From Sphingomonadales bacterium (GTDB lineage: Bacteria; Bacteroidota; Bacteroidia; UBA7662), in assembly GCA_016872215.1 (NCBI GenBank), contig VHAX01000001.1, positions 54,004 to 118,003 on the forward strand: a stretch of 64,000 nt of DNA, in the 5' to 3' direction. Below the pieces are notes generated by a model. It had not been told where the DNA came from. It did no database searches and saw only the letters and a list, made by a program, of their open reading frames with translations. Shown in pieces: positions 16,609 through 45,938 of this stretch. Numbering within the stretch: position 1 is the stretch's first letter; the number at the start of each line of letters is the position of its first letter. The position numbers and the translations under genes were made by a program.

Positions 16609-18591
16609 TTAGCCTTTAATTTGTAGAGATCTATAGAGCTCTGTAGCCTGGGGGTGACCAGGAAACCTAGCCAGTAAACTCTTGAGCGCGGCAATTGCCT
16701 CAGGTTTTTGTTTTCGGAAGAGCAGCAGGCCAATGAAATTCATGCGTGCGGATAGGTTATCGGGTTCCAGTGAGAGAGCCTTGCGGTACCAGTGCTCCGC
16801 CTTACGATCATCCCCTGCCCTCAAACTTAGGTATCCCAGGTTGGTCATTGCGGGAACGTACGACGGCTGCTCGCGCAATAACTCCTGAAGGTGATCCGTA
16901 CACTTTTGTACCTCTCCCCCATTCAATTCGGCCAGAGCAAATTTCAATCGAAAGTCGAGCTGATAAGGCATAAGCATAACAGCAACAGATAAATATGATT
17001 GTGACAATTCAAGATTCCCATTCTCCAGCAGTAGCTCCCCAAGGCGGTAAGCGCTCCAGGCGTCGAGGCGACCCAGCCAATTTCCGTGACGCGCAGCCAG
17101 CCGAACCGCACCGGGTATATCATGGCGCAGAAAAGTCAAATGGATCGAAGTTATGAGCCACAACAAGCTATCACTGCCAACTTCCATTTGTTTCAACCAA
17201 AATCCCGCTGAATCGAGAAATTCAGGTTGTGGGTCAAAACGTTCAAATTGCTGCAACAAAGCTCTTGCACGGGTGAGCGCATCCGGGTTGGGTTCATTGA
17301 TGCTGGCTAGACCCACAAATCGTCCCCTTGCCACCATAATCGAACGTCCATTTCTAGGATAGACCCTGATTTTATGATCTGTAATGCTAACATGAGGAAT
17401 GTCGCTCGTGCCCGTTTTTTGCATGTGACAAGAAACACAATCGTTATTCCGAACCTTACGCTCTGTCATGGGGGCGCCGCAGTCATCCTGACTGCTGTGA
17501 CAGGATCGACAGGCTGCGCGATAATGGCTGGTCGGCGTCGACTCCACGCTCTTATGAGGATTGTGGCAGCTGATACAACTTAGGATACCCGATGACCGCT
17601 TGTAACATTCCGACTGCATAAGGCGATCGGGGTGCGAAGCCATAGTGAAATGTTCCTCCTCACCTTCATAACGCGGCAGAAAGACACTCAAGACCTCATC
17701 GAGGTGCATTCCGGGCCGAAACGAAGTAAAATCCTTGCCTGGTTTGAGCACTGCGTTGCCCTGCAGATGGCAGCGTTGACAAATACTCATCTGAAGTGAA
17801 ACCGGTATGCGTCGTGGATTCACGATTCGATAATCCGGACTCACCGAGGTATCCACCAAGGTTCCGCTACGAATCCCCTCCACATGAAGGCGACCCGGAC
17901 CATGGCAGCGCTCACAATCGATCCCCGAAGGCACTCGCGCATACTTATGCTCAGAACCAGGCACCTGATCGGGATAGGCATTGTGGCAACTGATGCACTC
18001 CGACAATATAGCGCGACCGAATCGGGCATTGTTGCCGCGCTCAAAGCCGGGCGGCAAATCCCAATAACCCTTTTGCGTGTAGTAGGTCGCCGGCATCTGA
18101 TAGAGGTATCCGCCAATGCTGATCAAATGGCTGTTGGTGTGCTGCCCCGAGCCCACTACATAGCTGATTTGCTCGACACGATTGTGTACTGTATCCCCGC
18201 CCTGCAATCTGAATTCCCGCAAAAAGAGCGATGAATCGATCCGGAATGGGAGGTAGTGAAGATCATTCAGAGAATCGTACACCACATGTTGACCATCCCA
18301 GTCGGCCCGAGAGTGAATAATGTTGGCCGGTCCGAACGAACGACCCATTCCGGTTTGCATAAAACTGGAATAGATGCCGGCATGACAGCTACCGCATACT
18401 TCCTTTCCCACATAACCGGCACTGTCATAAAGATTTAAATAACGTTCGCCTACCTGCCTATCCGCCATCTTTTGGTCGGAAGAAGACACCGGTCCACACC
18501 GCTGCAATACCAACCAGGAAACCGCTAACAAAACCAAGATCTGAATTCGATGGGAACGCACAGCCTTCAGGCAAAACCGAGTCATGGGCAT
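16609..18591 (-). CDS. Secreted multihaem c-type cytochrome (7 CXXCH) fused to a C-terminal TPR domain
   Basis: Signal peptide MPMTRFCLKAVRSHRIQILVLLAVSWLVLQRC. Seven CXXCH motifs (CGSCH, CISCH, CERCH, CQRCH, CISCH, CRSCH, CVSCH) in the first ~420 aa. TPR-like repeats in the last ~230 aa (...AEHWYRKALSLEPDNLSARMNFIGLLLF...). The stop is 5 nt from the mltG start. Confidence 0.75.
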   Translation of the reverse strand: MPMTRFCLKAVRSHRIQILVLLAVSWLVLQRCGPVSSSDQKMADRQVGERYLNLYDSAGYVGKEVCGSCHAGIYSSFMQTGMGRSFGPANIIHSRADWDGQHVVYDSLNDLHYLPFRIDSSLFLREFRLQGGDTVHNRVEQISYVVGSGQHTNSHLISIGGYLYQMPATYYTQKGYWDLPPGFERGNNARFGRAILSECISCHNAYPDQVPGSEHKYARVPSGIDCERCHGPGRLHVEGIRSGTLVDTSVSPDYRIVNPRRIPVSLQMSICQRCHLQGNAVLKPGKDFTSFRPGMHLDEVLSVFLPRYEGEEEHFTMASHPDRLMQSECYKRSSGILSCISCHNPHKSVESTPTSHYRAACRSCHSSQDDCGAPMTERKVRNNDCVSCHMQKTGTSDIPHVSITDHKIRVYPRNGRSIMVARGRFVGLASINEPNPDALTRARALLQQFERFDPQPEFLDSAGFWLKQMEVGSDSLLWLITSIHLTFLRHDIPGAVRLAARHGNWLGRLDAWSAYRLGELLLENGNLELSQSYLSVAVMLMPYQLDFRLKFALAELNGGEVQKCTDHLQELLREQPSYVPAMTNLGYLSLRAGDDRKAEHWYRKALSLEPDNLSARMNFIGLLLFRKQKPEAIAALKSLLARFPGHPQATELYRSLQIKG

Positions 18592-18679
18592 TTTTAGCAA
18601 AACGTCCGAAAAATACACCTTAACGCCCTGAAATTCAAGTTGAGGTTCTATTTTTGCCCCTAAATCGTAACTCACACTT

Positions 18680-21334
18680 ATGGCGTTGTCAACCACCTAC
18701 AATCCGGCCCAGACAGAAGAGAAATGGTATGATCTCTGGCTGCAACACGCCTGTTTCCGTTCACAACCCGATCACAGGCCAGCCTATTCACTGGTCATCC
18801 CCCCACCCAACGTGACCGGGGTGCTGCACCTCGGACATATGCTTAACAACACCATTCAGGATGTTTTGGCACGCAAGGCCAGGCTCGACGGAAAGAATGT
18901 TTGCTGGGTACCCGGCACCGACCATGCATCGATCGCCACGGAAACCAAAGTGGTGAATATGCTGCAGGAACAAGGCATTAAAAAGGATGACATAGGCCGT
19001 GATGAGTTTTTGCGCCACGCCTGGGCATGGAAAGAGAAATATGGTGGCATTATCCTCCACCAACTCAAAAAACTGGGAGCCTCGCTTGACTGGGAACGCG
19101 AAGCGTTTACGATGTCGCCCGAACTCAGCGGATCGGTCACGGATGTATTCATTGACTTATACCACAAAGGCTATGTATACCGCGGTGTACGTATGGTGAA
19201 CTGGGATCCGGCCGGAAAAACAGCAGTGGCCGACGATGAAGTCATCTTCAAAACAGTAGCCTCGCGGATGTGTCACCTTCGTTACCGCTTCGTGGATCGT
19301 CCCGATGAATATCTCGTGGTGGCCACGGTGCGGCCTGAAACCATTATGGCTGACCGCGCAGTGTGTGTACACCCCGATGACCCCCGCTACCAGCACCTGC
19401 ACGGACAAATGCTTCGCATACCGCTCACGGGAAGAGCCATTCCAATCATTGCAGACCCTTTTGTGAGCATAGACTTTGGCACGGGCTGCCTCAAAGTAAC
19501 CCCGGCACATGACCCCAACGACTACGTCCTTGGGCAGAAATTCGGCCTTGAGATTGTAGACATCCTCGACGATACTGGAAAAATAAACGAGAAATCCGAA
19601 ATTTTGGTGGGAGAAGATCGGTTAGTGGCCCGCAAAAAGATTATTAACCTAATCAGCGAAGCCGGCGACCTCGAGAAAATCGAAGACTATCAAAGCAATG
19701 TTGGCCACAGCGAACGCACCAACGCGGTAATCGAGCCCCGCCTAAGCATGCAGTGGTTTGTTCGAATGGACGAGCTCACCCGGCCTGCACTCGAGGACGT
19801 GCTATCAGGGGCTGTACGGTTGCACCCCGACAAATTCATGGGCACCTATAGGCATTGGATGGACAATGTGCGCGACTGGTGCATATCCCGACAATTGTGG
19901 TGGGGACACCGCATTCCGGCCTGGTATGCCCCCGACGGAAGCGTTTGGGTGGAACGAACGGCAGAGGAAGCCGCGGCCCTCAGCGGTGGGCGCTGGAACG
20001 CGGCCGACTTATCGCAGGACGAAGATGTTCTAGATACCTGGTTTTCGAGTTGGCTTTGGCCCCTCACCGTATTCGACCCCGAAATCACCCATAAGACACC
20101 TGCTGAGGCCAACACCGACCTGCGCTACTACTACCCCACCCAGGTGCTGGTGACGGGCCCCGACATCCTTTTCTTTTGGGTGGCCCGCATGATGATGGCC
20201 GGAAGAATATACATGAACCAAATTCCCTTCCACGATGTATATCTGACCGGTATTGTGCGCGACAAACAAGGGAGAAAGATGTCGAAATCGCTGGGGAATA
20301 GTCCCGACCCCCTTGACCTGATCGAGCGCTACGGCGCCGACAGCCTACGCATGGGCCTGCTCCTGAGTTCGCCCGCAGGCAACGACCTGCTGTATGATGA
20401 GGCGCTTGTAGCACAAGGACGGAATTTTGCCAATAAAATCTGGAACGCTTTCCGCCTGATTAAGGGATGGCAACAGGCATTACAAGATGCCAGAAATCCC
20501 TCCGAAACACCCAGCATCCAAGGCGATCTGTCCGATTTGCACCCAGCTGTTGAATGGTTTGGCCACCGCCTGCATCAATTCCGACTACAAATGGAAAGCG
20601 ATTACGCAAAATTTCGTTTGTCGGATGTGGCCCAAGGTCTGTATAAACTCATCTGGGATGATTTCTGCTCGTGGTATCTCGAGATGGTAAAGCCCCCCTA
20701 TGGCAGCACCATCGAAGAAGATGTTCTGACTGCAACACGCCTGTATCTCGATACCTTGTTGCAGTACCTACACCCGGTAATGCCCTTCCTGACCGAAGAA
20801 CTTTGGCATGCACTCGACCCCGACCGTCAGGATTCGGATTTTATAGGACTCACTTCCCTACCCGGACGAGTTGAACCGAATCTGGGCATCCTCCACAACA
20901 CGGGGCAAGTACAAGAGATCATCATCCAATTACGGAATTTCAGAAACGAGCGACAATTGTCGCCCAAACACCCCATATCGCTATGGTTGCCGGGAACTCC
21001 CCACCTGCGCCGCTATTCATCGACTATTGCCCGTATGGCTGGTTGTGGATCAATCAATTGGGGCAAGCCCGAGCAAGAATCGCAGTGTATTCAATTTTTG
21101 GCCTTCACCGATGTTTGCTATGCCGACTTGGGCCTTCCCCAGAATTCACAGGCCAATCGTGAACGGATTCAATCTGAAATCGAATACCTGGAAGGATTTC
21201 TGGTATCGGTCCAAAAAAAGCTGTCGAACGAGCGATTCGTGGCCTCAGCCACGGAAGCTGTTCTGGCTAAAGAAAGGCAGAAAGAGGCCGACGCACGCCT
21301 CAAGCTGGAGAATCTGCGGAAAGCAATTTCCTGA
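18680..21334 (+). CDS. valS: Valine--tRNA ligase
   Basis: 884 aa. HIGH motif PPNVTGVLHLGH, KMSKS motif GRKMSKSLGNSPDP, and N-terminus TTYNPAQTEEKWY typical of ValS. Confidence 0.95.
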   Translation: MALSTTYNPAQTEEKWYDLWLQHACFRSQPDHRPAYSLVIPPPNVTGVLHLGHMLNNTIQDVLARKARLDGKNVCWVPGTDHASIATETKVVNMLQEQGIKKDDIGRDEFLRHAWAWKEKYGGIILHQLKKLGASLDWEREAFTMSPELSGSVTDVFIDLYHKGYVYRGVRMVNWDPAGKTAVADDEVIFKTVASRMCHLRYRFVDRPDEYLVVATVRPETIMADRAVCVHPDDPRYQHLHGQMLRIPLTGRAIPIIADPFVSIDFGTGCLKVTPAHDPNDYVLGQKFGLEIVDILDDTGKINEKSEILVGEDRLVARKKIINLISEAGDLEKIEDYQSNVGHSERTNAVIEPRLSMQWFVRMDELTRPALEDVLSGAVRLHPDKFMGTYRHWMDNVRDWCISRQLWWGHRIPAWYAPDGSVWVERTAEEAAALSGGRWNAADLSQDEDVLDTWFSSWLWPLTVFDPEITHKTPAEANTDLRYYYPTQVLVTGPDILFFWVARMMMAGRIYMNQIPFHDVYLTGIVRDKQGRKMSKSLGNSPDPLDLIERYGADSLRMGLLLSSPAGNDLLYDEALVAQGRNFANKIWNAFRLIKGWQQALQDARNPSETPSIQGDLSDLHPAVEWFGHRLHQFRLQMESDYAKFRLSDVAQGLYKLIWDDFCSWYLEMVKPPYGSTIEEDVLTATRLYLDTLLQYLHPVMPFLTEELWHALDPDRQDSDFIGLTSLPGRVEPNLGILHNTGQVQEIIIQLRNFRNERQLSPKHPISLWLPGTPHLRRYSSTIARMAGCGSINWGKPEQESQCIQFLAFTDVCYADLGLPQNSQANRERIQSEIEYLEGFLVSVQKKLSNERFVASATEAVLAKERQKEADARLKLENLRKAIS

Positions 21335-22439
21335 CAAATTCCTCCCAGCTGAATTCCTGTTTTTTAACAGCCACGCGAGCCGACATCTCAGTGTGTCGAT
21401 TTCTCAACAAAAAATCAAGCATACAATCCGCGATTTTTTCCGGATTCGGTGGGCAGACATAACCAGACTGATTTGCATCAACCAACTCGGCCAGACCACC
21501 CACATCCGTCACTAACATCGGGGTATTGTAATGAAATCCAATCTGGGTTACCCCACTCTGTGTGGCGTGGTGATAGGTTTGGGTAACCAAATCCGCGGCA
21601 GAAAACAACAACCGCACTTCATCATTCTTGATGAAGCGGGTCATCAAAACCAGATGGGGAGCCAGATTGCGCTCCTGAATAATGCGGTTGTAGCGGTCGG
21701 GTGACTCATAAAACTCGCCCGCAACCACCAATCTGACCCGGTGCGACCTCAATCGCTCATCCGCAAACGCCTCCAACAACAAGTCGAGGCCTTTATAGGC
21801 CCGGATAAAACCAAAATACAGGAAACAGGTGAACTCAGGATCTAAACCCAGCGCTTCACAGGCCAACCGACGATCAACCGGTTCGCCAAAATTATCGTAG
21901 AGGGGATGCTTGAGTCGAACCGAAGGCCGCCGATAACCCAACGCCAGTAAATCGGCCCGAACGGAGACACTAAGGGTTGCCGCCGCATCCGTCTGGGCTA
22001 AAAAAAAGCGAGTCAGCCATTCCGAAAAGGGAAAGGATTCATGCGGGATAATGTTGTCGACCAGCGCAATGCGCTTCGCCCTAGAACCCAATAAGTGTGA
22101 CCAAAACGAGAGCATTCCCAGACAAGGCGCCATAAAAGGCATCCAATACCGAAGAATTAAATAATCGGCGCGAAAACGGCACACATAGCGCGCCGTAAAA
22201 AACCAATTGATCGGATTCAGCGCATGCAGCAACACGCGGATCACCAATCCTTCCGGGGCAGGCTCCTCGCTCATCTGGGTTTTGCCTGGAAATAGCCAAC
22301 CAGGGTATTGCATCGTGAAGGTGATGATCTCCACCTCATGACCCTGAACCTGAAGGCTATAAGCCAGACGTTCATTGAACGTGGCCATTCCTCCTGCCCG
22401 CAGTGGCCACGCAGGGCCCACAATGAGCACCTTACTCAA
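21300..22439 (-). CDS. Glycosyltransferase family 4 (GT-B, GT4/GT1-like)
   Basis: N-terminus (TTG start) SKVLIVGPAWPLRAGGMATFNERLAYSLQVQGHEVEIIT and a C-terminal E...E-type sugar-donor domain. Overlaps the 3' end of valS convergently and overlaps the upstream GT2 stop by 8 nt. Confidence 0.7.
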   Translation of the reverse strand: MSKVLIVGPAWPLRAGGMATFNERLAYSLQVQGHEVEIITFTMQYPGWLFPGKTQMSEEPAPEGLVIRVLLHALNPINWFFTARYVCRFRADYLILRYWMPFMAPCLGMLSFWSHLLGSRAKRIALVDNIIPHESFPFSEWLTRFFLAQTDAAATLSVSVRADLLALGYRRPSVRLKHPLYDNFGEPVDRRLACEALGLDPEFTCFLYFGFIRAYKGLDLLLEAFADERLRSHRVRLVVAGEFYESPDRYNRIIQERNLAPHLVLMTRFIKNDEVRLLFSAADLVTQTYHHATQSGVTQIGFHYNTPMLVTDVGGLAELVDANQSGYVCPPNPEKIADCMLDFLLRNRHTEMSARVAVKKQEFSWEEFVRKLLSADSPA

Positions 22440-23406
22440 ATCCGGTTCTTTGACTGATTAAATACCGATTGCGGTCGGCCGAATTTCGGGTAACGAGCTC
22501 CGCCAAAAATCCGGTCAAAAAAAGCTGCGCCCCAACCACGATCAGCACCAGCGACAAAAAGAACAAAGGCTGTTGGGTAACCGACCGATAAGGCAATGAA
22601 AAGGCTATGTTATACAATTTCAGACCGATTAGAAAAAAGGTGATAACACCCCCTGTAACAAAACAAAGGGTGCCGTATAGTCCAAAAAAATGCATCGGAC
22701 GCCTGTCGAATTTGGACATGAAGTAGATCGACATCAAATCCAAAAATCCGTTTATAAAACGATCCATGCCAAACTTGGTGTGCCCGTATTTGCGTGCTTT
22801 ATGCTGAACCACCTGTTCCTCTATTTTTCGGAAACCGGCCCAACGGGCAATCACCGGAATGTAGCGATGCATCTCACCATAAACCTCAATACTCTTAACA
22901 ACCCTCGAATGATATGCTTTTAGTCCACAGTTAAAATCATGCAGATTGCGAACGCCAGATACCTTACGGGTGGCCCAGTTGAACAAGTGCGTCGGGATGG
23001 TCTTACTTAACGGATCGTATCGCTTCTTCTTCCAACCACTCAAAATATCCAACTGTTCTTGCTGCATCCGCTTGTACATATCCGGCAACTCATCTGGGGA
23101 GTCTTGGAGGTCGGCATCCATCGTGAATACAATCTCTCCACGAGCTGCCTCAAAACCCACATTCAGTGCAGGGGATTTACCATAATTCCGCTGGAATCGA
23201 ATTCCGCGCACCTGGCCCGGGTACTGCTCAGATTGGCGCGCGATCACAGACCATGAATCGTCGGTGCTACCGTCGTCGATGTAAATGATTTCAAATGACA
23301 AATTACTCCGCATCAGAACCTCCACGATCCAACGGGTGAGTTCGGGAAGCGATTCCTCTTCATTCAACTGAGGAATCACGACTGAAATATTCAACGGATT
23401 ATTCAT
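22432..23406 (-). CDS. Glycosyltransferase family 2, polyprenyl-phosphate sugar synthase type (DPM1/GtrB-like) with C-terminal TM helices
   Basis: MNNPLNISVVIPQLNEEESL...IIYIDDGSTDDS...FTMDADLQDSP (DXD). Two C-terminal hydrophobic helices. The start ATG at 23406 overlaps the stop of the upstream DUF4199 gene (ATGAATAA). Confidence 0.75.
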   Translation of the reverse strand: MNNPLNISVVIPQLNEEESLPELTRWIVEVLMRSNLSFEIIYIDDGSTDDSWSVIARQSEQYPGQVRGIRFQRNYGKSPALNVGFEAARGEIVFTMDADLQDSPDELPDMYKRMQQEQLDILSGWKKKRYDPLSKTIPTHLFNWATRKVSGVRNLHDFNCGLKAYHSRVVKSIEVYGEMHRYIPVIARWAGFRKIEEQVVQHKARKYGHTKFGMDRFINGFLDLMSIYFMSKFDRRPMHFFGLYGTLCFVTGGVITFFLIGLKLYNIAFSLPYRSVTQQPLFFLSLVLIVVGAQLFLTGFLAELVTRNSADRNRYLISQRTGFE

Positions 23407-23998
23407 GGTCCTGCGCTGAATCATCCATGAATAAGGGCTCATTCTTCCTTGTGAAGGCTGAAGCAATCAACGCCAAAAACAAGCCAACTATAACCAAAAT
23501 CATCCAGGATGTGGCCAGCGCCCGTGGGGTCTGGCTAAAATCACGTTCCTCAATAGCCTCCAGCTGCTCCTCTATTTGTTCACTCGGCACATCAAACTTC
23601 TCCAGCATTTGTTCCACTTGTTCAAGCGTGATCTCCTTCATATGTTCGTCCAATCCCTTGTCAATAACATTGTAAAGAACCCACATGAAGGCTACGTTGA
23701 GCAAAGTACCCAGCATACATACGCGCAACATCACCCACACACTCGTTCCATAATTCATCCAACCCCCCCCCTCTTCACGGCGATGCTCTAAGGCTGCCCC
23801 TACCATGAGGGCCACCAGCAACCCAATCGACAACAGAGAATTCCACCAGGCAATCATCAAAGCCGGATCAATTATGTATTGCACCGCAATAAAAGCAATC
23901 TGCAACACGCCTGTAATCAAACCCCATTTCAGCCAAACAGGCCATCCGCCCCTCTCTTCTTCGAGCGGATCCTTATAGAAATTGTGATCCCGATTCAT
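23399..23998 (-). CDS. DUF4199-like small membrane protein
   Basis: 199 aa with four predicted TM segments and an acidic coiled-coil insert (EHMKEITLEQVEQMLEKFDVPSEQIEEQLEAIEE). The family assignment is tentative. Confidence 0.45.
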   Translation of the reverse strand: MNRDHNFYKDPLEEERGGWPVWLKWGLITGVLQIAFIAVQYIIDPALMIAWWNSLLSIGLLVALMVGAALEHRREEGGGWMNYGTSVWVMLRVCMLGTLLNVAFMWVLYNVIDKGLDEHMKEITLEQVEQMLEKFDVPSEQIEEQLEAIEERDFSQTPRALATSWMILVIVGLFLALIASAFTRKNEPLFMDDSAQDHE

Positions 23999-24046
23999 TT
24001 TGATTGGCTTTATGGGTACAAAGTAAAGAAAAAGGAATGAAACCTC

Positions 24047-24565
24047 TTAGGAGGTTCGGTAATACAAGGAAACTAAAAAGGCAGTGAATACCGACCAAAA
24101 AAAGCGCGTGACCCAGAGGAAGGATGCCAGGAACGATGGGGTGGTTTCAAAAATACCATTTCGAAGCAACTCGGGCTGTTGTTCGTCGTAGTACTTAACG
24201 ATCGTGGCCCTGCCCTGATCGAGTTCCTCCAACAATCCCTGCACATATAGCTGCCATACCGCATCGTTCATGGTCCACATCCAAACCACCACAGAATAAG
24301 CAGTAGCGTTCAGCATACCGATTCCTACACCAGCCACCAAGCCATCCGTTACATTAAGCTGACCATTATTGTGGTCACGCCGAAACTTCCTGAGAGCCCA
24401 CACCATACCCGCAACGGTCGTTACAGACAGCAGCAAACGAAATTGCCCGAACGGATTGTAGCTAAATTGGATCAGCAGCCAAGCCAGAATCCAGGTCGCC
24501 CCTGCGGTGGCCAGACCCGCCCTGAACCCAACCGTTTGCATCATATAGCGAAAACGCTCGCGCAT
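24047..24565 (-). CDS. DUF4199-like small membrane protein (paralogue of the 23399-23998 gene)
   Basis: 172 aa, with the same 4-TM topology and similar W-rich helices (VVVWMWTMNDAVWQLYVQGLLEE). Confidence 0.4.
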   Translation of the reverse strand: MRERFRYMMQTVGFRAGLATAGATWILAWLLIQFSYNPFGQFRLLLSVTTVAGMVWALRKFRRDHNNGQLNVTDGLVAGVGIGMLNATAYSVVVWMWTMNDAVWQLYVQGLLEELDQGRATIVKYYDEQQPELLRNGIFETTPSFLASFLWVTRFFWSVFTAFLVSLYYRTS

Positions 24566-24569
24566 GGAA

Positions 24570-25436
24570 TCAGCTGTGTTGGATCAAGCCAAAAAATAAA
24601 CTCTGCACCGAATTGGGACGTAAATGTTGGGGAAAACACCATTCGGATTTGAGCGCTGCCATCAGGCACATGTAAACTGGAAGTATGTGCTTGTCGACCA
24701 ACCGGGCTGAAAATACATAGCCCATCCCGTGCATCGGGTCTGCAGGATCCTTGAAAAAGCACATCAAACCGGGCAGGAGTCCATCCAAAGGGGTGCCTAC
24801 CGACACGTTCAGGCTCTCACGGATGAGTCGGGGGTAGGGAAATGCCATACTGCTTGATTGTTGAATCAATACTTCAAATACGGCCAGGTCGTCCTGCAGG
24901 TCAAAATCTTCATCGGTCAGAAAGGCATCTACAAAATCATTCAGATCCGCTTCTAGTCCCGACGCATTCACCTCCTGCAAATACATCAATACAGTCAGCA
25001 ATTCACTACCCCTATCCACTAACATCTCCTCATCGGCCAGCCAGACCTCATTCAAATCGCCCTTGGCGCATTCCTCACTCAGCCAGTAGGTATAGCTTAC
25101 ATCAAACAGAAAATGCGCCGATTCCTCGTCAATCAGATAGCGATCCACAAAGCCGTCAAGCTGTGCTACTCGTGCCCGCAGTTGGCCCGGACAATTCCAA
25201 ACCTGATCCAGGAACTCGTCCCATATCGATAAAGACGCACCCTCTTTCTTTCCGGCCGCGTCGATGGCCACGGCAATGGCGGAATTACTTATGATGCCGG
25301 GGCGGACGGAGGAATCCGCCGCTGAATCGGGTAGACAACCGGTTCTGATCCAATTCGACTCATTGGCGAAGATTGGGGTGTTGCTCAACAGGAATCCGGA
25401 GAACAGCGCCTCGGCCGCCAGCTTCCAGGTTTGCAT
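24570..25436 (-). CDS. Hypothetical acidic protein (288 aa), translationally coupled to the dihydroorotase-like gene
   Basis: Open frame with strongly acidic Asp/Glu-rich composition. Its start overlaps the upstream stop by 1 nt (TAATG). No recognisable family. Confidence 0.4.
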   Translation of the reverse strand: MQTWKLAAEALFSGFLLSNTPIFANESNWIRTGCLPDSAADSSVRPGIISNSAIAVAIDAAGKKEGASLSIWDEFLDQVWNCPGQLRARVAQLDGFVDRYLIDEESAHFLFDVSYTYWLSEECAKGDLNEVWLADEEMLVDRGSELLTVLMYLQEVNASGLEADLNDFVDAFLTDEDFDLQDDLAVFEVLIQQSSSMAFPYPRLIRESLNVSVGTPLDGLLPGLMCFFKDPADPMHGMGYVFSARLVDKHILPVYMCLMAALKSEWCFPQHLRPNSVQSLFFGLIQHS

Positions 25437-26701
25437 TATGGTAAATAGGTTTGTTTTTTATGAAGAACGGCACGGATGCGCCCTGCAAATGATTGTCCAT
25501 GGTAGGGAATGTTAACTCCCCGGGTGGCGCACAGATCCTTGTCGAACCGGGTGTAATCCCCCCTGTCAAATACCATAAACTCTGCTTCCTGACCCCGCTC
25601 GATCCGGGCTTGCTCCACTCCCAATCGCCGTGCGGGTCGGGAAGTGATGGCGTCTATCGCTTTTTCCAATTCCTTTTCCTGCTGAAATACGGAATGCACC
25701 AGTAAAAAAACCACTTCCAAAGAAGCTATTCCATATTCTGCCCGTGCAAATTCTACATCCTTTCCCTGCTCATCCTCGGGCATATGATCCGAACAAATCA
25801 CATCTATACTGCCATCGAGAACACCCATACGCAATTGCTCCCGATCACCCAAAGCCCTTAACGGCGGCCAAAGCTTATAGTCTGTCTCAAAACGCTCCAG
25901 GTCCTCATCACAATGGTACAAATGAGCCGCTGTCACCCCACAGGTCACATCCAGACCCGCCTCCCTGGCCTGGCGAATAAACTTAAGACTACCTGCACTG
26001 CTGATCTTAGTGAAATGCAGTTGACCCCCGAAATAGGTCAGCACCGCCAAATCGCGCATCACCTGTATGTGCTCTGCCAAATCCGGAATGCCCTTAAGGC
26101 CCAATCGCAGGCTCACCTGGCCCTCATGCATGAGTCCACCCCGTGACAAATCCTGATCCGCTGGAACAATCTGAACGGGACAACCCACCTGCCGGGCATA
26201 CTGAAGCGCCAGCCCCAGGGTACGAGCAGATTCCATAGGGGCATCAGCCTGGGAAAACATCCGTACCCCCGCCCTATGCAAGTCGAACATCTCAGTGATT
26301 TCCTGCCCCTTTAAATCGCGCGTCAGCGCACCGGCAACATACAGTTCGACCGGTAAGCCCTGAGCCAATTTGTGTATGGCCTCAACTTCCCCTCTGCTCT
26401 GCAGCACAGGATGGGTGTCGGGCTGGAGAAGGACACGCGTAAATCCACCGCGAAAGGCCGCCTCAGAACCGCTTCGGAGTGACTCCTTGAACTCGTGCCC
26501 GGGTTCCCTGAATCGGGCACAAGTATCGACCCAGCCCGGACACATCCAAAGATCATGGCCCACGATTTCCTGTGCCTCACCCAACTCCAAATGCTCATCC
26601 AGTTCCTCCAATCGCCCATTTCGAACCCGTACATCCATACGCTTACCATGATGAGAGGAGCCCCTCTGGGTAATTCGCACTGATCTGAACAATAGATGCA
26701 T
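25436..26701 (-). CDS. Dihydroorotase-like amidohydrolase with a degenerate first metal-binding motif (possible PyrC-prime pseudoenzyme)
   Basis: 421 aa. DVRVRNGRLEEL...HDLWMCPGWVDTCARFREPGHEFKESLRSGSEAAFRGGFTRVL aligns to the DHOase PG.ID.HVHLREPG...KE...G..AA..GGFT block, but with D-T-C-A-R in place of D-x-H-x-H. A later block, VICSDHMPEDE, stands where DHOases have DHAPH. Confidence 0.6.
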   Translation of the reverse strand: MHLLFRSVRITQRGSSHHGKRMDVRVRNGRLEELDEHLELGEAQEIVGHDLWMCPGWVDTCARFREPGHEFKESLRSGSEAAFRGGFTRVLLQPDTHPVLQSRGEVEAIHKLAQGLPVELYVAGALTRDLKGQEITEMFDLHRAGVRMFSQADAPMESARTLGLALQYARQVGCPVQIVPADQDLSRGGLMHEGQVSLRLGLKGIPDLAEHIQVMRDLAVLTYFGGQLHFTKISSAGSLKFIRQAREAGLDVTCGVTAAHLYHCDEDLERFETDYKLWPPLRALGDREQLRMGVLDGSIDVICSDHMPEDEQGKDVEFARAEYGIASLEVVFLLVHSVFQQEKELEKAIDAITSRPARRLGVEQARIERGQEAEFMVFDRGDYTRFDKDLCATRGVNIPYHGQSFAGRIRAVLHKKQTYLP

Positions 26702-26719
26702 AAAAAGTAATGAGTAGAA

Positions 26720-28753
26720 TTATGTGATATTTCGCGCTAAAATCATCTCCAACAGCAAACATAGCAAAACACCGGCAAGCAGCCATCGCCAGAGACCAGA
26801 ACTGCCCGCTTCGGCTACCAATCCACCGGCCACCGAAGAATCGCGAAGGGAATAGCTGTTCCATCCTCGTTCCCCGGCCAAAGCCGACAGAGATTCGGCC
26901 GACCAATACTGGAGCTCTGACTCATCCGATGAGGCGTTTAGGGCCACAATCTCTCCGGCCAGGGGTTGGCCGTCGAGCATGACGGAATAGTGACCAGGGG
27001 TCATGATACCGTCCATGATTCCCAGGCCCAGGCGGTCGCCCTGACGGCTTACCTGCGGAACCATGCGCTGTGGACCATTAACGAGTGATATGAGTCCATC
27101 CGGCCGAACTCCCGGAATGCTGAGCTCGATTCTTGGGGTAGAGCCCAATCGCCAGGAAGAAGGCATATTTCCACCCGCCATCAACATAGCACGGTAGAGT
27201 GTGGGCACCCACAAAGCCTGTTCCGGGAAATCAGACCATTCCTTTTCCGGCGCACTCAACAACAGAAGCATTTGGCCAGCCCCAACCTTGCGACGCACGA
27301 GCCATGGCGATCGGTCAGCCAATTGCATGATGGTGTAATCGTCGGGCAAGAGGTTGGTCGACCAGTATTTTTGAACCGTAGGAAGCGCCAATTGTTCCGG
27401 AATCCGTTCGAAGGTCTCCTGATAGAGAGGATCCTTCACCTCTATCCGGGCAACCTGCTGTCGCTGTGCCACCACATTCAGACATTTTCCTCCTCCGGTG
27501 GCCGCGAGCAAGGAATTGACCACTATGGGATCCGAAAGACCGGAGGGGAGCACTACTACGGATCCTCCCTGCTGCATTTTATCATGTAGTGCGGTCAACA
27601 ACCCGCTGCTGACCTGCGATAGCCGGTCCAGAATCACCCCCTTGGCCGAAGAAAGCGCGTTGTAGTCGATGTTCAATCGCGAGGTCACGCTGCAATTCAT
27701 AAACTCATCTCCTGAGAACAAGCCACTTACATAGGGACTAGCTTCCGCTTCGGTGATGTGAAGCAGCGGGAAACGATCGGCCACCTCCATACGCATATAC
27801 CAATGCCGGTCGTAGTCGAGTCCCGACTCCTCCACCGACAAACGTGCGGTGAGGATGCCAGCCTGAGCAGGTGTGAATCCGAGAGTATCCGATGCAGTTC
27901 CAAACGCGGGAACGTCCAGGGTCGAAAGGCCCTTTTGAGCACCCTCCATCTCCAGAAGGATGCGCACACCTTCTGCATCGCGACTACCCCCATTTCGAAC
28001 TGCCAAAATGAGTCGCGCAGGCTGACTGGTTTGCAACAAGGGCTGCTCCACATATGCTGTGTCGATGTAGACATGCGCGAACGGGGCGGGACTAAACTGA
28101 AGCAGGTGCACCACAGCGGATGTATCGATGGAAATGTCGGCCAGAGGGTAAGCCGAATTCTGGAAATCGCCCAACCAATAAAGGCGTGCCTTATGGGTTA
28201 CCCCGGTATAGCGTATCAGCTCCAACTGCCGTTCCTTGATTTGATTGAGCGGGCGCACAGCCGCGGTGACCGTAATCTGAGCCAGGGCCTGAATAAACTC
28301 ATCGCGCCCCAACCAGCGTTGACTTCCGGGAGCGAGCTCATGTGAAATCAATTGAAACTGATCGGTAGCGGGTAATTGCTGGGCCAGCGACCGGGCCGCC
28401 TCACGCGCTTGCTCCAACAAAATTCCACCTTCGCCTGCCAGCGACATACTGGGTGAATTGTCGACGAACACCGAATGGTAGCCCTGGCGAAGTGCGGAAT
28501 TATTTTTCCCATCGCCACCCCACTCCGGACGGGCAAAAGACAGCACCAATAGAACCACCGCCAAAGTACGGCTTGCCAGAACCAGAAGATGTTTGAGGTG
28601 ACTACGCTTGCGGTTTTGTTCTCGGATCTCCTTGAGCAAGCTGACGTTGCTAAACAAAATGCGCCGTGGAGCTCTGAAACTAAACAAATGAACAACCAGA
28701 GGGACGAGGGCCAAAAAAAGACCCCAAAGGGCCGCCGGTTGGGCAAATTGCAT
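26720..28753 (-). CDS. BatA-domain (N-terminal double-TM) von Willebrand factor A protein with a C-terminal TM anchor
   Basis: N-terminus QPAALWGLFLALVPLVVHLFSFRAP (TIGR02226-like). vWA MIDAS motif VFVDNSPSMS (DxSxS). C-terminal TM LWRWLLAGVLLCLLLEMIL. 677 aa. Confidence 0.55.
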   Translation of the reverse strand: MQFAQPAALWGLFLALVPLVVHLFSFRAPRRILFSNVSLLKEIREQNRKRSHLKHLLVLASRTLAVVLLVLSFARPEWGGDGKNNSALRQGYHSVFVDNSPSMSLAGEGGILLEQAREAARSLAQQLPATDQFQLISHELAPGSQRWLGRDEFIQALAQITVTAAVRPLNQIKERQLELIRYTGVTHKARLYWLGDFQNSAYPLADISIDTSAVVHLLQFSPAPFAHVYIDTAYVEQPLLQTSQPARLILAVRNGGSRDAEGVRILLEMEGAQKGLSTLDVPAFGTASDTLGFTPAQAGILTARLSVEESGLDYDRHWYMRMEVADRFPLLHITEAEASPYVSGLFSGDEFMNCSVTSRLNIDYNALSSAKGVILDRLSQVSSGLLTALHDKMQQGGSVVVLPSGLSDPIVVNSLLAATGGGKCLNVVAQRQQVARIEVKDPLYQETFERIPEQLALPTVQKYWSTNLLPDDYTIMQLADRSPWLVRRKVGAGQMLLLLSAPEKEWSDFPEQALWVPTLYRAMLMAGGNMPSSWRLGSTPRIELSIPGVRPDGLISLVNGPQRMVPQVSRQGDRLGLGIMDGIMTPGHYSVMLDGQPLAGEIVALNASSDESELQYWSAESLSALAGERGWNSYSLRDSSVAGGLVAEAGSSGLWRWLLAGVLLCLLLEMILARNIT

Positions 28754-28866
28754 TTTGCAAAAATATTCGTTTTTCCTATTATTGAGGTTGGTTCGATGAA
28801 TTATGAACCTGGAATCGGGTTAAAGCCCTATTTATCTTACATTTTGATGTCGTAACTACAAACACT

Positions 28867-29349
28867 ATGCGAAAAATCGATCAATTATTATCGGTCTACG
28901 GGGAAAGTCACCAAAACGCCATCAACAAGCTCATCCACTGGATTTGCGTACCCGTCATTATGTTCACCATGTTGGGCCTGATCTGGAATATCCCCAGTCA
29001 GGGCCTGAACCTGATCTTTGGCAAAAGCAAGCCCGAATGGTTCAACTGGTCGACCCTCATCCTCATCCCCATTATCCTCTACTATCTGCGCTTGTCATTT
29101 GCATTATTTACTGGCATGTCACTAATTGCCCTCCTGATCACATTAGGGCATTTATACCTCGCCCGTCTGGGGCCATCAGGCCATTTACTGACCTGCACCG
29201 CACTTTTTGTTGCCGCCTGGATTGGCCAATTCTACGGCCACATGGTGGAAGGCAAAAAACCCTCATTTCTGCAGGACGCCCAATTTCTGCTGATTGGTCC
29301 CGCCTGGCTTTTGCATTTTATTTACCGCCGTTTGGGCATACCCTATTAA
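28867..29349 (+). CDS. DUF962 (Mpo1-like) membrane protein
   Basis: 160 aa. YGESHQNAINKLIHWICVPVIMF matches the Y..H.N..N...H...VP N-terminal signature of DUF962. Three or four TM helices. Confidence 0.55.
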   Translation: MRKIDQLLSVYGESHQNAINKLIHWICVPVIMFTMLGLIWNIPSQGLNLIFGKSKPEWFNWSTLILIPIILYYLRLSFALFTGMSLIALLITLGHLYLARLGPSGHLLTCTALFVAAWIGQFYGHMVEGKKPSFLQDAQFLLIGPAWLLHFIYRRLGIPY

Positions 29350-39939: not shown

Positions 39940-41259
39940 TTAACCCCCGAAATCATCGAAGCTCACATGCTCCTCCGGGATTCCCCAGTCATCACACATC
40001 GTAATAACAGCTGCATTCATCATAGGCGGGCCACAGAAATAGAATTCAATCTCCTCCGGATCCGGATGCTTGCTGAGGTAATTGTCGATAAAGACCTTGT
40101 GCACAAATCCAATGAATCCATCGCCCTCACGGTCTTCCACATCCTTCGACACTTTCCAGTTGTCCTCGGGAAGCGGTTCCGAGAGAACAATATGAAAACG
40201 GAAATTAGGAAACTCCTTCTCAATGGCCCGGAATTCGTCGATGTAAAACAGCTCACGGCGTGAACGTCCCCCATACCAATAAGATACCTTGCGTCCCGTT
40301 TTCAGGGTATGAAAAAGGTGGAAGATGTGACTTCGAAGCGGGGCCATGCCCGCACCGCCACCGATGTAGACCATCTCCCGCTCTGTGGGTTTGATGAAAA
40401 ACTCACCGTATGGCCCGGATATGGTGACCTTATCGCCCGGCTGACGGCTAAATACGAAGGACGAACAAATACCCGGATTGACCGGCATCCACTTGTTGGC
40501 AACGCGATCCCATGGCGGAGTAGCAATTCGGATGTTGAGCATGATTATATTTCCCTCCGCCGGATGGTTGGCCATGGAATAGGCCCTGAAAATCGGCTCT
40601 GGATTCTTCATATTCAAATCCCAGAGATTAAACTTATCCCAATCTTCCTTGAATTTGTCTTGTCCGGCAGGATCTGAGGGATGTGGGGCAATATCCATTC
40701 CTTTAAAGTCTATATCAACCGCCGGAACGTCTAACTGGATGTAGCCACCCGATTCAAAGTGTAGATGCTCGCCTTCTGGCAGTTTCACCACAAACTCTTT
40801 TATATAGGTGGAAACGTTATAATTCGAAACCACCTCACATTCCCACTTTTTGATTCCAAAGACTTCCTCAGGCACTTGTATCTTCATATCCGACTTCACT
40901 TTCACCTGACAAGCCAAACGCCAGTGCTCAGCCTGTTGCTTACGTGACAGGTGGCCTTTTTCAGTTGGTAGCACATCTCCGCCTCCCTCAAGGATCTGAC
41001 ATTTGCACATGGCGCATGTTCCGCCCCCTCCACAAGCTGAAGGCAGAAACAACTTGCTGTTACTTAATGTACTGAGCAGATTCGATCCCGGACTTGCCAC
41101 GAGCGCATTAGCCTCATCACCATTTACAATGATCCGAACCTCACCCGAAGGAAGAAGCTTCTTTTGAGCAAAAAGCAGGACCACAACGAGCAATAAAATA
41201 ACAAGACTGAACGCCCCAATGCTGAGACCGACAATCGTCATAGTGTTCAGTAAAAACAT
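39940..41259 (-). CDS. nqrF: Na+-translocating NADH:quinone oxidoreductase subunit F
   Basis: N-terminal TM, 2Fe-2S ferredoxin motif [17 protein letters not shown]-binding (RAYSMAN) and NAD-binding (GGGAGMAP) blocks. The start may instead be the ATG at 41241. Confidence 0.9.
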
Positions 41260-41268
41260 ACCCGAATA

Positions 41269-41901
41269 TTATAGTTGAATTCCCAGAAAACTCATAAACG
41301 CGAGACCCATCAAGCCCGTTAAAATAAATGTGATTCCCAAACCTCTTAATGGCTTGGGCACGTCGGAGTACCGAATTTTCATTCTAATCGCTGCCAAAGC
41401 CACAATTGCAATGAGCCATCCAACCCCGCTACCCAAACCAAAAACAGTAGCCTCTGCCAAGGTGTAATCGCGCTCTTGCATGAATAAAGACCCACCAAGG
41501 ATTGAACAATTTACTGCGATAAGGGGCAGAAAGATTCCAAGTGAACTATATAAAGCAGGCGAAAACTTTTCAACCACCATCTCCACCAATTGGGTCATAG
41601 ACGCAATTGTGGCGATAAACATAATGAAGGCCAGAAAAGTAAGGTCAACCTCAGCGAATGATGGCGAAATCCAAGCCAATGCACCTTCTTTAAGCAGACC
41701 ATTGATCAGCAACCAATTGATCGGCACAGTGATTCCCAAAACAAAAATAACCGCGGCGCCCAATCCAATGGCCGTGTTCACATTCTTAGAAACAGCCAAA
41801 AATGAACACATGCCCAGAAAAAAGGCGAAAATCATATTGTCTACGAAAATGGATCGTACAAAAAGGCTGACCAAATCAGCAAAAAGTAGTGTCGTTATCA
41901 T
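41269..41901 (-). CDS. nqrE: Na+-translocating NADH:quinone oxidoreductase subunit E
   Basis: [30 protein letters not shown]...[17 protein letters not shown]...[24 protein letters not shown] matches NqrE. Confidence 0.9.
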
Positions 41902-42572
41902 GCTTCCTCAGTGTATTTGTTAATCGAGCGCTGAACCCAGATGATGGTGGCCACAATAAACAGGGCCCCTGCCGGAATCATCATGAGGCCATTGTTTACA
42001 TACCCGATCTCTGGCGCATAAAGAGCCTCTGGAATTATAGAAAAGCCGAACAACTTACCCGAACCAAACAATTCACGCACAAAAGCTACGGCTAAAATCA
42101 CCCACGCATAACCCGCAGAATTACCCAAACCATCCAATATTGAGGAGCCTGGCTTGTTGCCCATTGCAAAGGCCTCCAAACGACCCATAACGATACAATT
42201 GGTAATAATCAAGCCTACAAATACTGAAAGCTGCTTACTCACATCATAAACAAACGCCTTCAAGATTTCATCGACCAAAATGACCAGTAAGGATACAACA
42301 ACCAGCTGCACAATTATGCGTATGCGGGCAGGAATATAGTTTCGCATCAGGGAAACAATCAAATTCGAAAATACAACAACGGCTGTCACGCTTATGGCCA
42401 TAACCAAGGTTGGCTTCAACTGAGTTGTTACGGCCAGCGCTGAGCAAATACCCAACACCTGGATGGTAATGGGATTGCTATCCGACAAGGGGTCGGTCAC
42501 CAACTTTCTGTCTCTCTTGGATAACAGCGGCTTCGATTCCCTGACCGGCGCCGCAGTAGTGGCGGTTGACAT
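41898..42572 (-). CDS. nqrD: Na+-translocating NADH:quinone oxidoreductase subunit D
   Basis: [31 protein letters not shown]...[26 protein letters not shown] matches NqrD. A 4-nt overlap with nqrE. Confidence 0.9.
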
Positions 42573-42573
42573 A

Positions 42574-43323
42574 TTAAACTTTTTTGGATTTGTTGATGTA
42601 GGTCAAATAAAACTTTATGTCCTCCCTGAGCATATTAGAAACACCCGTTGAGGTAATGGTACCACCCGAAATAGCATCCACCTTGTGTGGATCATCGTCG
42701 GACTTGGCTTCTTTGGTTACCTGCACCGAAACAAATGATCCGGAATCATCAAAAATCTTTCGGTTCCGAAACTGCCCTTCAAAACCATCTGTATTGATCT
42801 CAGCGCCCAATCCAGGTGTTTCACCCTTGTGATCAAACACCGCTTTTTTCACCGTATTGCCATCTTCGTCCAATGCCAGGTAGCCCCATATGGGTCCCCA
42901 TAAGCCCACACCCGCCAACTGCAGAATAAAGGTTTTTTTTCCGCCTTCTTCGAAAATATACAGAGGGTATCTCAAGGTATAAGTTGAGTCTTTTGTGTGC
43001 AACTTCTTATCGTATGCGAGATTGATATCAAAAGCATCTACTCCTGTTAACTCATTACCATGCTCATCAATCACCACCGATTTGATATACGTGTTAAATT
43101 TCTTGTAATCGTCTGTGGCCGTCTTTCCTACCACACTCAGGATATTCTCCTGCTTCTCTTTTAAAAAATTCTGTTCCTGAAAAGGTTTTAGTATGGTGGC
43201 CGCGCCCGACAGCATCAGGGCCACGATAATGGTAACGGCAAACGCAAAGCCGAATACGTATGTATTGGAGTTAAGCACGGGCGAGTCTTTTTTTAATGTT
43301 TGACTGAACGACAAAATGATCAA
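42574..43323 (-). CDS. nqrC: Na+-translocating NADH:quinone oxidoreductase subunit C
   Basis: N-terminal TM, FMN-attachment motif DAISGGTITSTGV, and ...ETPGLGAEI. The track start (43323) is a TTG that overlaps nqrB by 53 nt. A GTG at 43278 (MLNSNTYVFGF, 8-nt overlap) is an alternative start. Confidence 0.85.
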   Translation of the reverse strand: MIILSFSQTLKKDSPVLNSNTYVFGFAFAVTIIVALMLSGAATILKPFQEQNFLKEKQENILSVVGKTATDDYKKFNTYIKSVVIDEHGNELTGVDAFDINLAYDKKLHTKDSTYTLRYPLYIFEEGGKKTFILQLAGVGLWGPIWGYLALDEDGNTVKKAVFDHKGETPGLGAEINTDGFEGQFRNRKIFDDSGSFVSVQVTKEAKSDDDPHKVDAISGGTITSTGVSNMLREDIKFYLTYINKSKKV

Positions 43324-44407: not shown

Positions 44408-44425
44408 ATGCAGCTTGATATAGGA

Positions 44426-45784: not shown

Positions 45785-45938
45785 GTTTTCAATTGACAAA
45801 AACGAACGCGCCATCAACCTGTAAGCTTGAGGGCAAACACGGGGTTTGGCGGCGCAAAAGTATAAATAGAAGCGCAAAGCACAACCTTAATTCTAAAAAT
45901 AATGTTTCATTCCGTATCATTGCCGCACGAATTCGATA

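Follow-up and report, generated by a model that had tools for sequence, protein, structure and literature searches.

Enzymes of glycosyltransferase family 2 (GT2) that make polyprenyl-phosphate sugars are known from several systems in which they stand beside small membrane proteins, among them ArnC with ArnE/F, GtrB with GtrA in the Gtr serotype-conversion module, GacI with GacJ in Streptococcus, and DPM1 with DPM2 and DPM3 in eukaryotes. Polyprenyl-phosphate sugars are used by enzymes of the GT-C type, whereas glycosyltransferases of family GT4 have the GT-B fold, are cytoplasmic and take nucleotide sugars as donors. The locus described here lies in a bacterium of the phylum Bacteroidota (assembly GCA_016872215.1), within a stretch of 64,000 nucleotides of contig VHAX01000001.1 (positions 54,004 to 118,003; hereafter the window, within which all coordinates are given). 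It is an array of seven genes, designated G1 to G7, that encode a BatA-like membrane protein, a protein resembling dihydroorotase (DHOase), an acidic protein, two membrane proteins of the DUF4199 family, a GT2 and a GT4. The array is real and anciently conserved in Bacteroidota. It is best read as a module A, consisting of the BatA-like and DHOase-like genes with the gene of the acidic protein in some lineages, and a module B, consisting of one or two DUF4199 genes, the GT2 gene and the gene of a variable second glycosyltransferase. The modules are often joined, and the DUF4199 and DHOase-like genes form the joint between them.

The GT2 and its DUF4199 partner

The seven open reading frames (ORFs) occupy positions 21300 to 28753 of the minus strand. 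An earlier note on this DNA, made from the letters alone, had reported seven co-oriented genes with overlapping or abutting ends; an ORF check placed all of them where it had put them, and its junctions were found when the sequence was read directly. The gap between G1 and G2 is 18 nt, G2 and G3 overlap by 1 nt (TAATG), and G3 and G4 are separated by 4 nt. The only sizeable intergenic space of the array, 48 nt, lies between G4 and G5. G5 and G6 overlap by 8 nt in ATGAATAA, which contains the ATG start of G6, and G6 and G7 overlap by 8 nt in TTGAGTAA if G7 begins at the start that gives 379 aa. An in-frame GTG at 22430, which is the start called in the near-identical locus L003 of another metagenome-assembled genome (MAG), would give a G7 of 376 aa and a G6/G7 gap of 1 nt. 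Since most ORFs of at least 150 aa between 21 and 46 kb lie on the minus strand, the co-orientation of G1 to G7 is in itself unremarkable; it is conservation in other genomes, not co-orientation, that raises the array above chance. The family assignments of the earlier note for G1 to G7 agree with Pfam and NCBIfam searches, in which the DHOase-like protein scored below the curated cut-offs.

G6 (22432..23406, minus strand; 324 aa) matches the Pfam family Glycos_transf_2 (E-value 5e-30) and belongs by its alignments with the polyprenyl-phosphate glycosyltransferases of the ArnC/GtrB/DPM1 type. Its residues 6-319 align with residues 9-312 of ArnC in the solved structure 9bhc (E-value 5e-38), and it aligns with residues 23-328 of the Synechocystis GtrB sll0501 (5ekp; E-value 1e-22). 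Both alignments take in the C-terminal membrane helices; the hydrophobic segments of G6 are at residues 246-264 and 275-305. The segment MDADLQDSPDE of G6 pairs with LDADLQNPPEE of ArnC, and D97, D99 and Q101 are invariant in 10 orthologues. With these end-to-end alignments, membrane helices included, the DPM1/GtrB architecture that had been proposed for G6 is sound, as is its prediction from sequence to be a GT2 of the polyprenyl-phosphate glycosyltransferase kind. Against the NCBIfam equivalog of ArnC (NF007986; E-value 1.6e-47) G6 scores 162 bits, far below the cut-off of 529, which makes it a polyprenyl-phosphate glycosyltransferase but no orthologue of ArnC.

A search of 5.8 billion proteins gave closest matches with 65-73% identity to G6 in Pedobacter, Sphingobacteriaceae and unclassified Bacteroidota. 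A scan of genomes, one per species, returned more than 600 matches, of which the best 80 (56-73% identity) were used for the analysis of gene order. These 80 orthologues come from Sphingobacteriales, Cytophagales, Chitinophagales, Saprospirales, Flavobacteriales and Bacteroidales, the last including Bacteroides, Prevotella and Alistipes. By sequence, G6 is among the most conserved glycosyltransferases of the phylum, to a degree that is unusual. ORFs were called in the 80 loci and searched with iteratively built hidden Markov models of the window proteins. In the 77 loci with sufficient flank, a DUF4199 gene lies directly upstream of the GT2 gene on the same strand in 58, in every order sampled. 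The gaps between the two, as estimated from ORFs, are zero or negative in 19 of these 58 and at most 30 nt in 36, and all 30 of the sampled upstream partners match DUF4199 in Pfam. Of the neighbours of the GT2, DUF4199 is the nearest and the least variable. Gene order across Bacteroidota, which the earlier note had put forward as the way of checking the array, is thus conserved, and all major orders include loci with DUF4199 upstream of the GT2. The same note did not recognise the gene combination as a named system, and neither a named system nor a functional paper was found in the literature.

The family match is clear for G5 (23399..23998, minus strand; 199 aa; E-value 8e-23) and more distant for G4 (24047..24565, minus strand; 172 aa; E-value 4e-9), with 82.1 and 37.5 bits, respectively, against a gathering cut-off of 32.3 for DUF4199 (PF13858). 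G4 is a divergent paralogue of G5 (22% identity, E-value 1e-4), and a second DUF4199 copy was also found in loci of Cytophagales and Hymenobacter. G5 contains some four membrane helices as well as an insert that is helical and acidic. Its AlphaFold2 model, built on an alignment of 40 sequences, has a pLDDT of 54.6 and was too poor for a fold search; in this low-confidence model the helices span residues 21-43, 49-75, 83-134 and 154-185. A functional study of DUF4199 was not found in the literature, where the family appears in one expression table only; this table, for Porphyromonas gingivalis W83, lists PG0311 (GT2) and PG0312 (DUF4199) as an adjacent pair (PMC10434189). For the orthologue group of G6, PG0311 included, no functional study was found in the literature either.

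A few candidate relatives were set aside. UbiA enzymes likewise act on polyprenyl phosphates, and a contig of 1758 nt from ENA (P0157) carries an N-terminal segment of a UbiA-type prenyltransferase followed by the C-terminal two thirds of a DUF4199 protein that is 75% identical to G5. This apparent fusion, which sits on one contig of 1.7 kb, probably reflects a chimeric assembly or an error in gene calling. FpgA of Flavobacterium psychrophilum, a GT2 of 319 aa with a pleiotropic mutant, could not be established as an orthologue of G6; the gene upstream of it has been described as WbhW-like rather than DUF4199, and its named relatives are WcaA-like. The genes pep25 and lbp26 of F. collinsii are different genes.

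The BatA-like and dihydroorotase-like genes and the GT4

G1 (26720..28753, minus strand; 677 aa) is a BatA-like inner-membrane protein (PF07584, E-value 7e-19; two_anch TIGR02226, E-value 1e-16). Its hydrophobic segments at residues 3-21, 56-74 and 658-676 correspond to two N-terminal helices and a C-terminal anchor, with a large middle domain between them. This domain carries a DxSxS motif ('DnS.SM') which, like the motif 'DFQ', is at least 90% conserved among 21 orthologues. Such conservation would fit a von Willebrand factor A (vWA) domain of the MIDAS type, though Pfam matches no VWA domain in G1; a PDB relative was not found.

G2 (25436..26701, minus strand; 421 aa) is a soluble protein of the type-I DHOase kind, with many DHOase model matches, all of them below the curated cut-offs. 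It aligns with the DHOases of Bacillus anthracis (3mpg, E-value 3e-59) and Aquifex at E-values of about 1e-55 to 1e-59, while its match to the P. gingivalis enzyme (2gwn) is partial (E-value 1e-15), and it is thus not the housekeeping-type DHOase of Bacteroidota. The metal-ligand positions are largely altered. The HxH motif reads C-A-R (C61/R63), the bridging Asp151 is replaced by Gln (Q151), Pro (P180) and Lys (K232) stand at the positions of B. anthracis His178 and His231, and D305 is kept. Among the DHOase-like proteins, of which 34 came from genomes and 81 from metagenomes, Phe mostly takes the place of the first His of HxH, and the second is Asn or His. Pro replaces His178 in 70 of 81 members and Gly replaces His231 in 54, and the position of Asp304 holds His or Asp; the bridging Asp is retained in 79 of 81, and most other ligand positions are lost family-wide. 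To judge from these residues, G2 is a pseudoenzyme that is catalytically dead, and so is its family; the designation 'DHOase-like amidohydrolase' in the earlier note says too much. Among the NCBIfam models, G2 is matched best by PRK07627, which we take to be the model for the non-catalytic PyrC' of the Pseudomonas type.

G3 (24570..25436, minus strand; 288 aa) is an acidic all-alpha protein, with 42 Asp and Glu against 17 Lys and Arg, and matches neither a Pfam nor an NCBIfam family. The fold predicted for it resembles that of the ADP-ribosylglycohydrolases; for its family of 51 members, matches to Pfam (ADP_ribosyl_GH) and to PDB sequences were not found. Conserved acidic residues of G3 are D112, those of DRGTE at 141-145, D167 and E188.

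Around the 80 GT2 genes, the DHOase-like gene lies upstream of DUF4199 in 25 of 66 loci, drawn from Sphingobacteriales, Cytophagales, Chitinophagales and Saprospirales, and a BatA-like gene lies upstream of the DHOase-like gene in 13 of 53. A G3-like gene is confined to Sphingobacteriaceae and the clade of the window itself. The full order BatA-DHO-G3-DUF4199-DUF4199-GT2-GT4 recurs in a MAG of the Sphingobacteriaceae (L005), while Hymenobacter has BatA-DUF4199-DUF4199-GT2-GT4, without the DHOase-like gene, and Chitinophagaceae have DHO-DUF4199-GT2-GT4, without the BatA-like gene. In the Chitinophagaceae MAG locus L066 (3693-12072) two divergently oriented DHO-DUF4199-GT2-GT4 sets are present, each followed by heptose genes. 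In Mucilaginibacter (L011, L018 and L030) an inversion has placed BatA-DHO-G3-DUF4199 about 6 kb from the GT2 gene and on the opposite strand. Because DUF4199 here stays with module A, apart from the GT2, it is tied to both modules.

The reciprocal analysis, in which metagenome contigs were scanned with an alignment of 12 DHOase-like proteins, yielded 80 loci. DUF4199 is the next gene downstream of the DHOase-like gene in 50 of 67 and the BatA-like gene is the next upstream in 20 of 50. In all 44 loci with both flanks, BatA or DUF4199 adjoins the DHOase-like gene, and in 4 of them both do.

What follows the GT2 is less constant. G7 (21300..22439, minus strand; 376-379 aa) is a GT4 of the GT-B fold (Glycos_transf_1, E-value 3e-16; Glyco_trans_4_4, E-value 4e-8) and belongs to a distinct subfamily within Bacteroidota, with 54 orthologues at 39-62% identity. 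The canonical EX7E motif was not found in G7: where it would fall, a position judged by eye, the region reads 'ATQSGVTQIGF', and 'ATQSGV' is conserved across the 54 orthologues. The PDB relatives of G7 are generic GT-B proteins only. An orthologue of this GT4 lies directly downstream of the GT2 gene in 23 of 73 loci. In Sphingobacteriaceae and some Cytophagales its place is taken by a soluble EpsD/AglG-like GT2 and a protein of 262 aa, and it is absent from most Bacteroidales loci, where genes for DUF6452 and DUF6048 stand instead. In L037 (10957-13799) and other loci of Bacteroides, Prevotella and Muribaculaceae the order is GT2, DUF6452, DUF6048, often followed by MntP and ApbE, a downstream set that is conserved there and unlike that of the window.

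In about 11 loci the GT4 gene is followed by HddA-GmhA-HddC-GmhB, the pathway to GDP-D-glycero-alpha-D-manno-heptose, as in L039 (6290-12135) and also in L023, L033, L036, L056, L059, L060, L066, L068 and L079. These loci belong to Segetibacter, Flavihumibacter, Ferruginibacter, Saprospiraceae, Vicingus and some Bacteroidales MAGs, and in one locus, of Flavihumibacter, a Wzx-type flippase gene follows the GT4 and heptose genes. We know of no heptose-containing glycan that has been linked to such a cluster. The presence of heptose genes beside the GT4 places this enzyme among the steps of assembly that take place in the cytoplasm and require nucleotide sugars. In L074, GmhA and GmhB follow the GT2 gene directly. 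The GT4-heptose clusters end in an uncharacterised protein of about 330 aa, and an ORF of 299 aa without a Pfam match at 60297-61196 (plus strand) of the window is 29% identical to it (tblastn E-value 3e-29); a search of the window for GDP-heptose genes found none.

Proposed function and rival explanations

In the arrangement proposed here, which on balance is probable, G6 would act at the cytoplasmic face of the inner membrane, where it is predicted to convert a nucleotide sugar to an undecaprenyl-phosphate monosaccharide. DUF4199, to judge from gene order, would be its dedicated membrane partner, either as an activating or stabilising subunit, by analogy with GacJ for GacI and DPM2/3 for DPM1, or as a protein that carries the lipid-linked sugar across the membrane in the manner of GtrA or ArnE/F. 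An unlinked GT-C enzyme would then use the lipid-linked sugar in the periplasm for the decoration of a glycoconjugate found in envelopes throughout the phylum. G7 would be a lineage-variable cytoplasmic addition that depends on nucleotide sugars and does not consume the lipid-linked sugar; it could add to the undecaprenyl-phosphate sugar from the cytoplasm, much as soluble glycosyltransferases do with dolichol-phosphate glucose in Haloferax, or act on another lipid-linked glycan. The pseudo-DHOase is most likely a non-catalytic scaffold or ligand-sensing subunit that works with the BatA-like and DUF4199 proteins, and perhaps the GT2, rather than an enzyme of pyrimidine synthesis, as BatA or DUF4199 always adjoins its gene. 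In the human gut, and in many soils and waters, Bacteroidota are dominant, and the glycans of their envelope influence colonisation and immunity. Learning what the lipid-linked sugar decorates would close a gap in envelope biology.

Several observations weigh against a functional unit of this kind. DUF4199 does not adjoin the GT2 gene in 19 of the 77 loci and, with the split in Mucilaginibacter, this means that their coupling in gene order is not obligatory. The BatA-like and DHOase-like genes occur as a stand-alone pair with variable neighbours in 16-18 loci, and both are absent within 10 kb of the GT2 gene in the Bacteroidales loci and in those Flavobacteriales loci that have upstream flank. 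Modules A and B may thus function independently of each other, with no more in common than an operon inherited from an ancestor. A sample of 30 DUF4199 proteins gave no meaningful match to other Pfam families at E-values up to 1, the GtrA-type flippases (PF04138) and the ArnE/F proteins of the SMR type show no detectable sequence relation to DUF4199, and a PDB sequence search matched the family to no solved structure. A GT-C transferase is not a conserved neighbour among the 80 GT2 loci or in the neighbourhood of the array in the window, so that the downstream half of the pathway is missing; the only GT-C gene across the 80 loci is that for a PMT_2 protein in L066, on the opposite strand and about 4 kb away. 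Co-transcription is putative, and a hairpin of 7 bp (24040..24057, minus strand) spans the stop codon of G4 at the 48-nt gap between G4 and G5, with T-rich sequence after it. It may be a weak terminator or attenuator that separates module A and G4 from G5 to G7, the evidence for this being weak: the scan found 7 terminator-like sites, fewer than the 10.2 in shuffled sequence.

How far the seven genes belong together can be read in more than one way. The earlier note had read them as a lipid-linked glycosylation module. In a single pathway of all seven, the GT2 would make a polyprenyl-phosphate sugar, DUF4199 would flip it, the GT4 would pass it to the final acceptor and the BatA-like, DHOase-like and acidic proteins would be accessory, for example through editing of the sugar by an amidohydrolase. 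A deacylase step does occur where lipid A is modified by pathways of the ArnC, LgmA and FlmF2 type, the gene junctions are tight, and the full seven-gene order recurs in L005. Such a pathway is nevertheless highly improbable, and seven genes acting as one is too simple a picture, for the BatA-like and pseudo-DHOase genes also occur as a separate pair. Transfer of the lipid-linked sugar by the GT4 is itself unlikely: GT-B enzymes such as this cytoplasmic GT4 use nucleotide sugars, polyprenyl-phosphate sugars being the substrates of GT-C enzymes; the membership of the GT4 in the array varies, as it is absent or replaced by another GT2 in most lineages; and its neighbours include heptose genes. 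A working amidohydrolase is unlikely as well, given the loss of most metal ligands among the 81 members of the G2 family. The separate occurrence of modules A and B in many lineages would suit a conserved operon of unrelated housekeeping genes, in which the pseudo-DHOase is a partner of aspartate transcarbamoylase, the BatA-like protein stands apart and only DUF4199 and the GT2, possibly with the GT4, serve glycosylation. The match of G2 to PRK07627, through its presumed link to PyrC', and its distance from the Bacteroidota-type DHOase point the same way. This explanation seems somewhat unlikely, since the constancy of the neighbours of the pseudo-DHOase is hard to account for other than by a functional tie: with BatA or DUF4199 adjoining in all 44 loci, no association with pyrB or aspartate transcarbamoylase was seen in gene order, and the stand-alone BatA-DHO loci share no recurring neighbour besides BatA-like or DUF4199 genes. 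A functional study of the BatA-DHO pair was not found in the literature.

The destination of the sugar is likewise open to different readings. The closest characterised relatives of G6 are ArnC and GtrB, and the GT4 adjoins GDP-heptose genes and once a Wzx flippase gene, as is typical of lipopolysaccharide (LPS) and O-antigen loci; the GT2 module could accordingly modify lipid A, LPS core or O-antigen in the periplasm, like ArnC/ArnT, FlmF/FlmK of Francisella, LgmA/LgmB of Bordetella or the phage Gtr enzymes. This is unlikely in view of the score of G6 far under the ArnC cut-off and because ArnT, GtrC, other GT-C enzymes, ArnA/B/D and GtrA are encoded neither in the window nor by conserved neighbours; to our knowledge no phylum-wide sugar modification of Bacteroidota lipid A has been described. 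The phylum-wide occurrence of the GT2-DUF4199 pair and its unusual conservation would also fit a supply of the conserved inner sugar of the Bacteroidota protein O-glycan, by way of an undecaprenyl-phosphate hexose that a GT-C enzyme moves to Ser/Thr of D(S/T)(A/I/L/V/M/T), in the manner of PMT-type O-mannosylation. According to reviews (PMC12871550, PMC8729774), the machinery for the O-glycan core (hexose and deoxyhexose) is encoded outside the LFG locus, and its glycosyltransferases, its flippase and the oligosaccharyltransferase are unknown, which leaves these roles unassigned; glycopeptides of P. gingivalis occur in single-hexose and hexose-plus-deoxyhexose forms (PMC8729774). An origin of the core hexose in the GT2-DUF4199 pair is all the same quite unlikely. 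What speaks for it is a matching of distributions, a GT-C gene is not linked, current models have the glycan assembled on an undecaprenyl carrier and then transferred en bloc (PMC12871550), and the reducing sugar varies by species, Gal or Man (PMC8729774), which argues against a single conserved synthase. Quite unlikely, too, is the more elaborate combination in which DUF4199 is a new kind of GT2 partner (flippase or activating subunit), the pair gives the O-glycan core sugar, and the BatA-like protein and the pseudo-DHOase are regulatory or scaffold components of the same complex.

Surroundings of the array and comparison with known systems

The array is bounded by genes of the opposite strand. 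The valS gene (18680-21334, plus strand) and G7 are convergent and their 3' ends share 35 nt (21300-21334), which leaves no space for a terminator between them. At the other end, a gene for an Mpo1-like protein of the 2-hydroxy-palmitic acid dioxygenase family (28867-29349, plus strand) diverges from G1. The shared intergenic region of 113 nt contains a candidate promoter, TATTTTTG (28758..28765, minus strand), which matches the Bacteroidota -7 box TAnnTTTG and lies 4 nt upstream of the G1 start codon. TAnnTTTG occurs 33 times in the window, against 33.8 expected by chance, and only the position of TATTTTTG is therefore suggestive; a further copy stands upstream of valS at 18649-18656. Scans for sigma-70 promoters, TAnnTTTG and terminators gave counts at or below chance, so that no inference on transcription units is drawn from them.

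Just past valS, a gene at 16609-18696 (minus strand) encodes a protein of 695 aa with weak signatures of multi-haem cytochromes c (Cytochrome_C7, paired CXXCH) and C-terminal TPR repeats; its position is conserved in the close MAG L003. Elsewhere in the window, at 39940-45877 (minus strand), a run of genes of the Nqr/Rnf type encodes an NQR2_RnfD_RnfE protein, an FMN_bind protein, two Rnf-Nqr subunits and an NqrF-like protein with Fer2, FAD- and NAD-binding domains, and looks like an operon for Na+-translocating NADH:quinone oxidoreductase.

Set beside known systems, the array is a module of the GtrB/ArnC type with a new partner family and companions that are unexplained, and no new mechanism is demonstrated by it. 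G1 shares with the Bat aerotolerance operon (MoxR-DUF58-BatA-BatB-BatC-BatD) the N-terminal double-transmembrane domain of BatA and the DxSxS motif. However, MoxR, DUF58 and BatB-D are not its neighbours, and G1, at 677 aa, has a C-terminal anchor and no Pfam VWA match. G2 resembles PyrC', the subunit of class A aspartate transcarbamoylase in Pseudomonas, as a homologue of type-I DHOase that lacks zinc ligands, but its constant neighbours are BatA-like and DUF4199 genes and not pyrimidine genes. The AglJ/AglG/AglI/AglE system of Haloferax likewise uses a GT2 that acts on polyprenyl phosphate and then soluble glycosyltransferases, with weak similarity between G6 and AglJ (E-value 7e-16) and between the soluble GT2 of Pedobacter and AglG (E-value 8e-10), both far below the cut-offs; a transferase of the AglB type is not linked to the array.

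The pairing of a GT2 synthase with a small membrane partner may be compared by analogy with GacI/GacJ and with DPM1/DPM2/DPM3, from which the array differs in that DUF4199 shows no sequence relation to other Pfam families and G6 carries membrane helices of its own. ArnC aligns with G6 over its full length, including the DADLQ motif and the C-terminal helices, and small membrane proteins are encoded beside G6 as in the ArnC/ArnE-F/ArnT system, although genes for ArnA, B, D, T, E and F are not present here. The Gtr module and Synechocystis sll0501 share with the array both the architecture of the GT2 and a small four-helix membrane protein next to it, but the partner is DUF4199 here and not GtrA (PF04138), and a GT-C gene is not adjacent. 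The Gtr module is, moreover, carried by phages, whereas the array is chromosomal, phylum-wide and vertically conserved.

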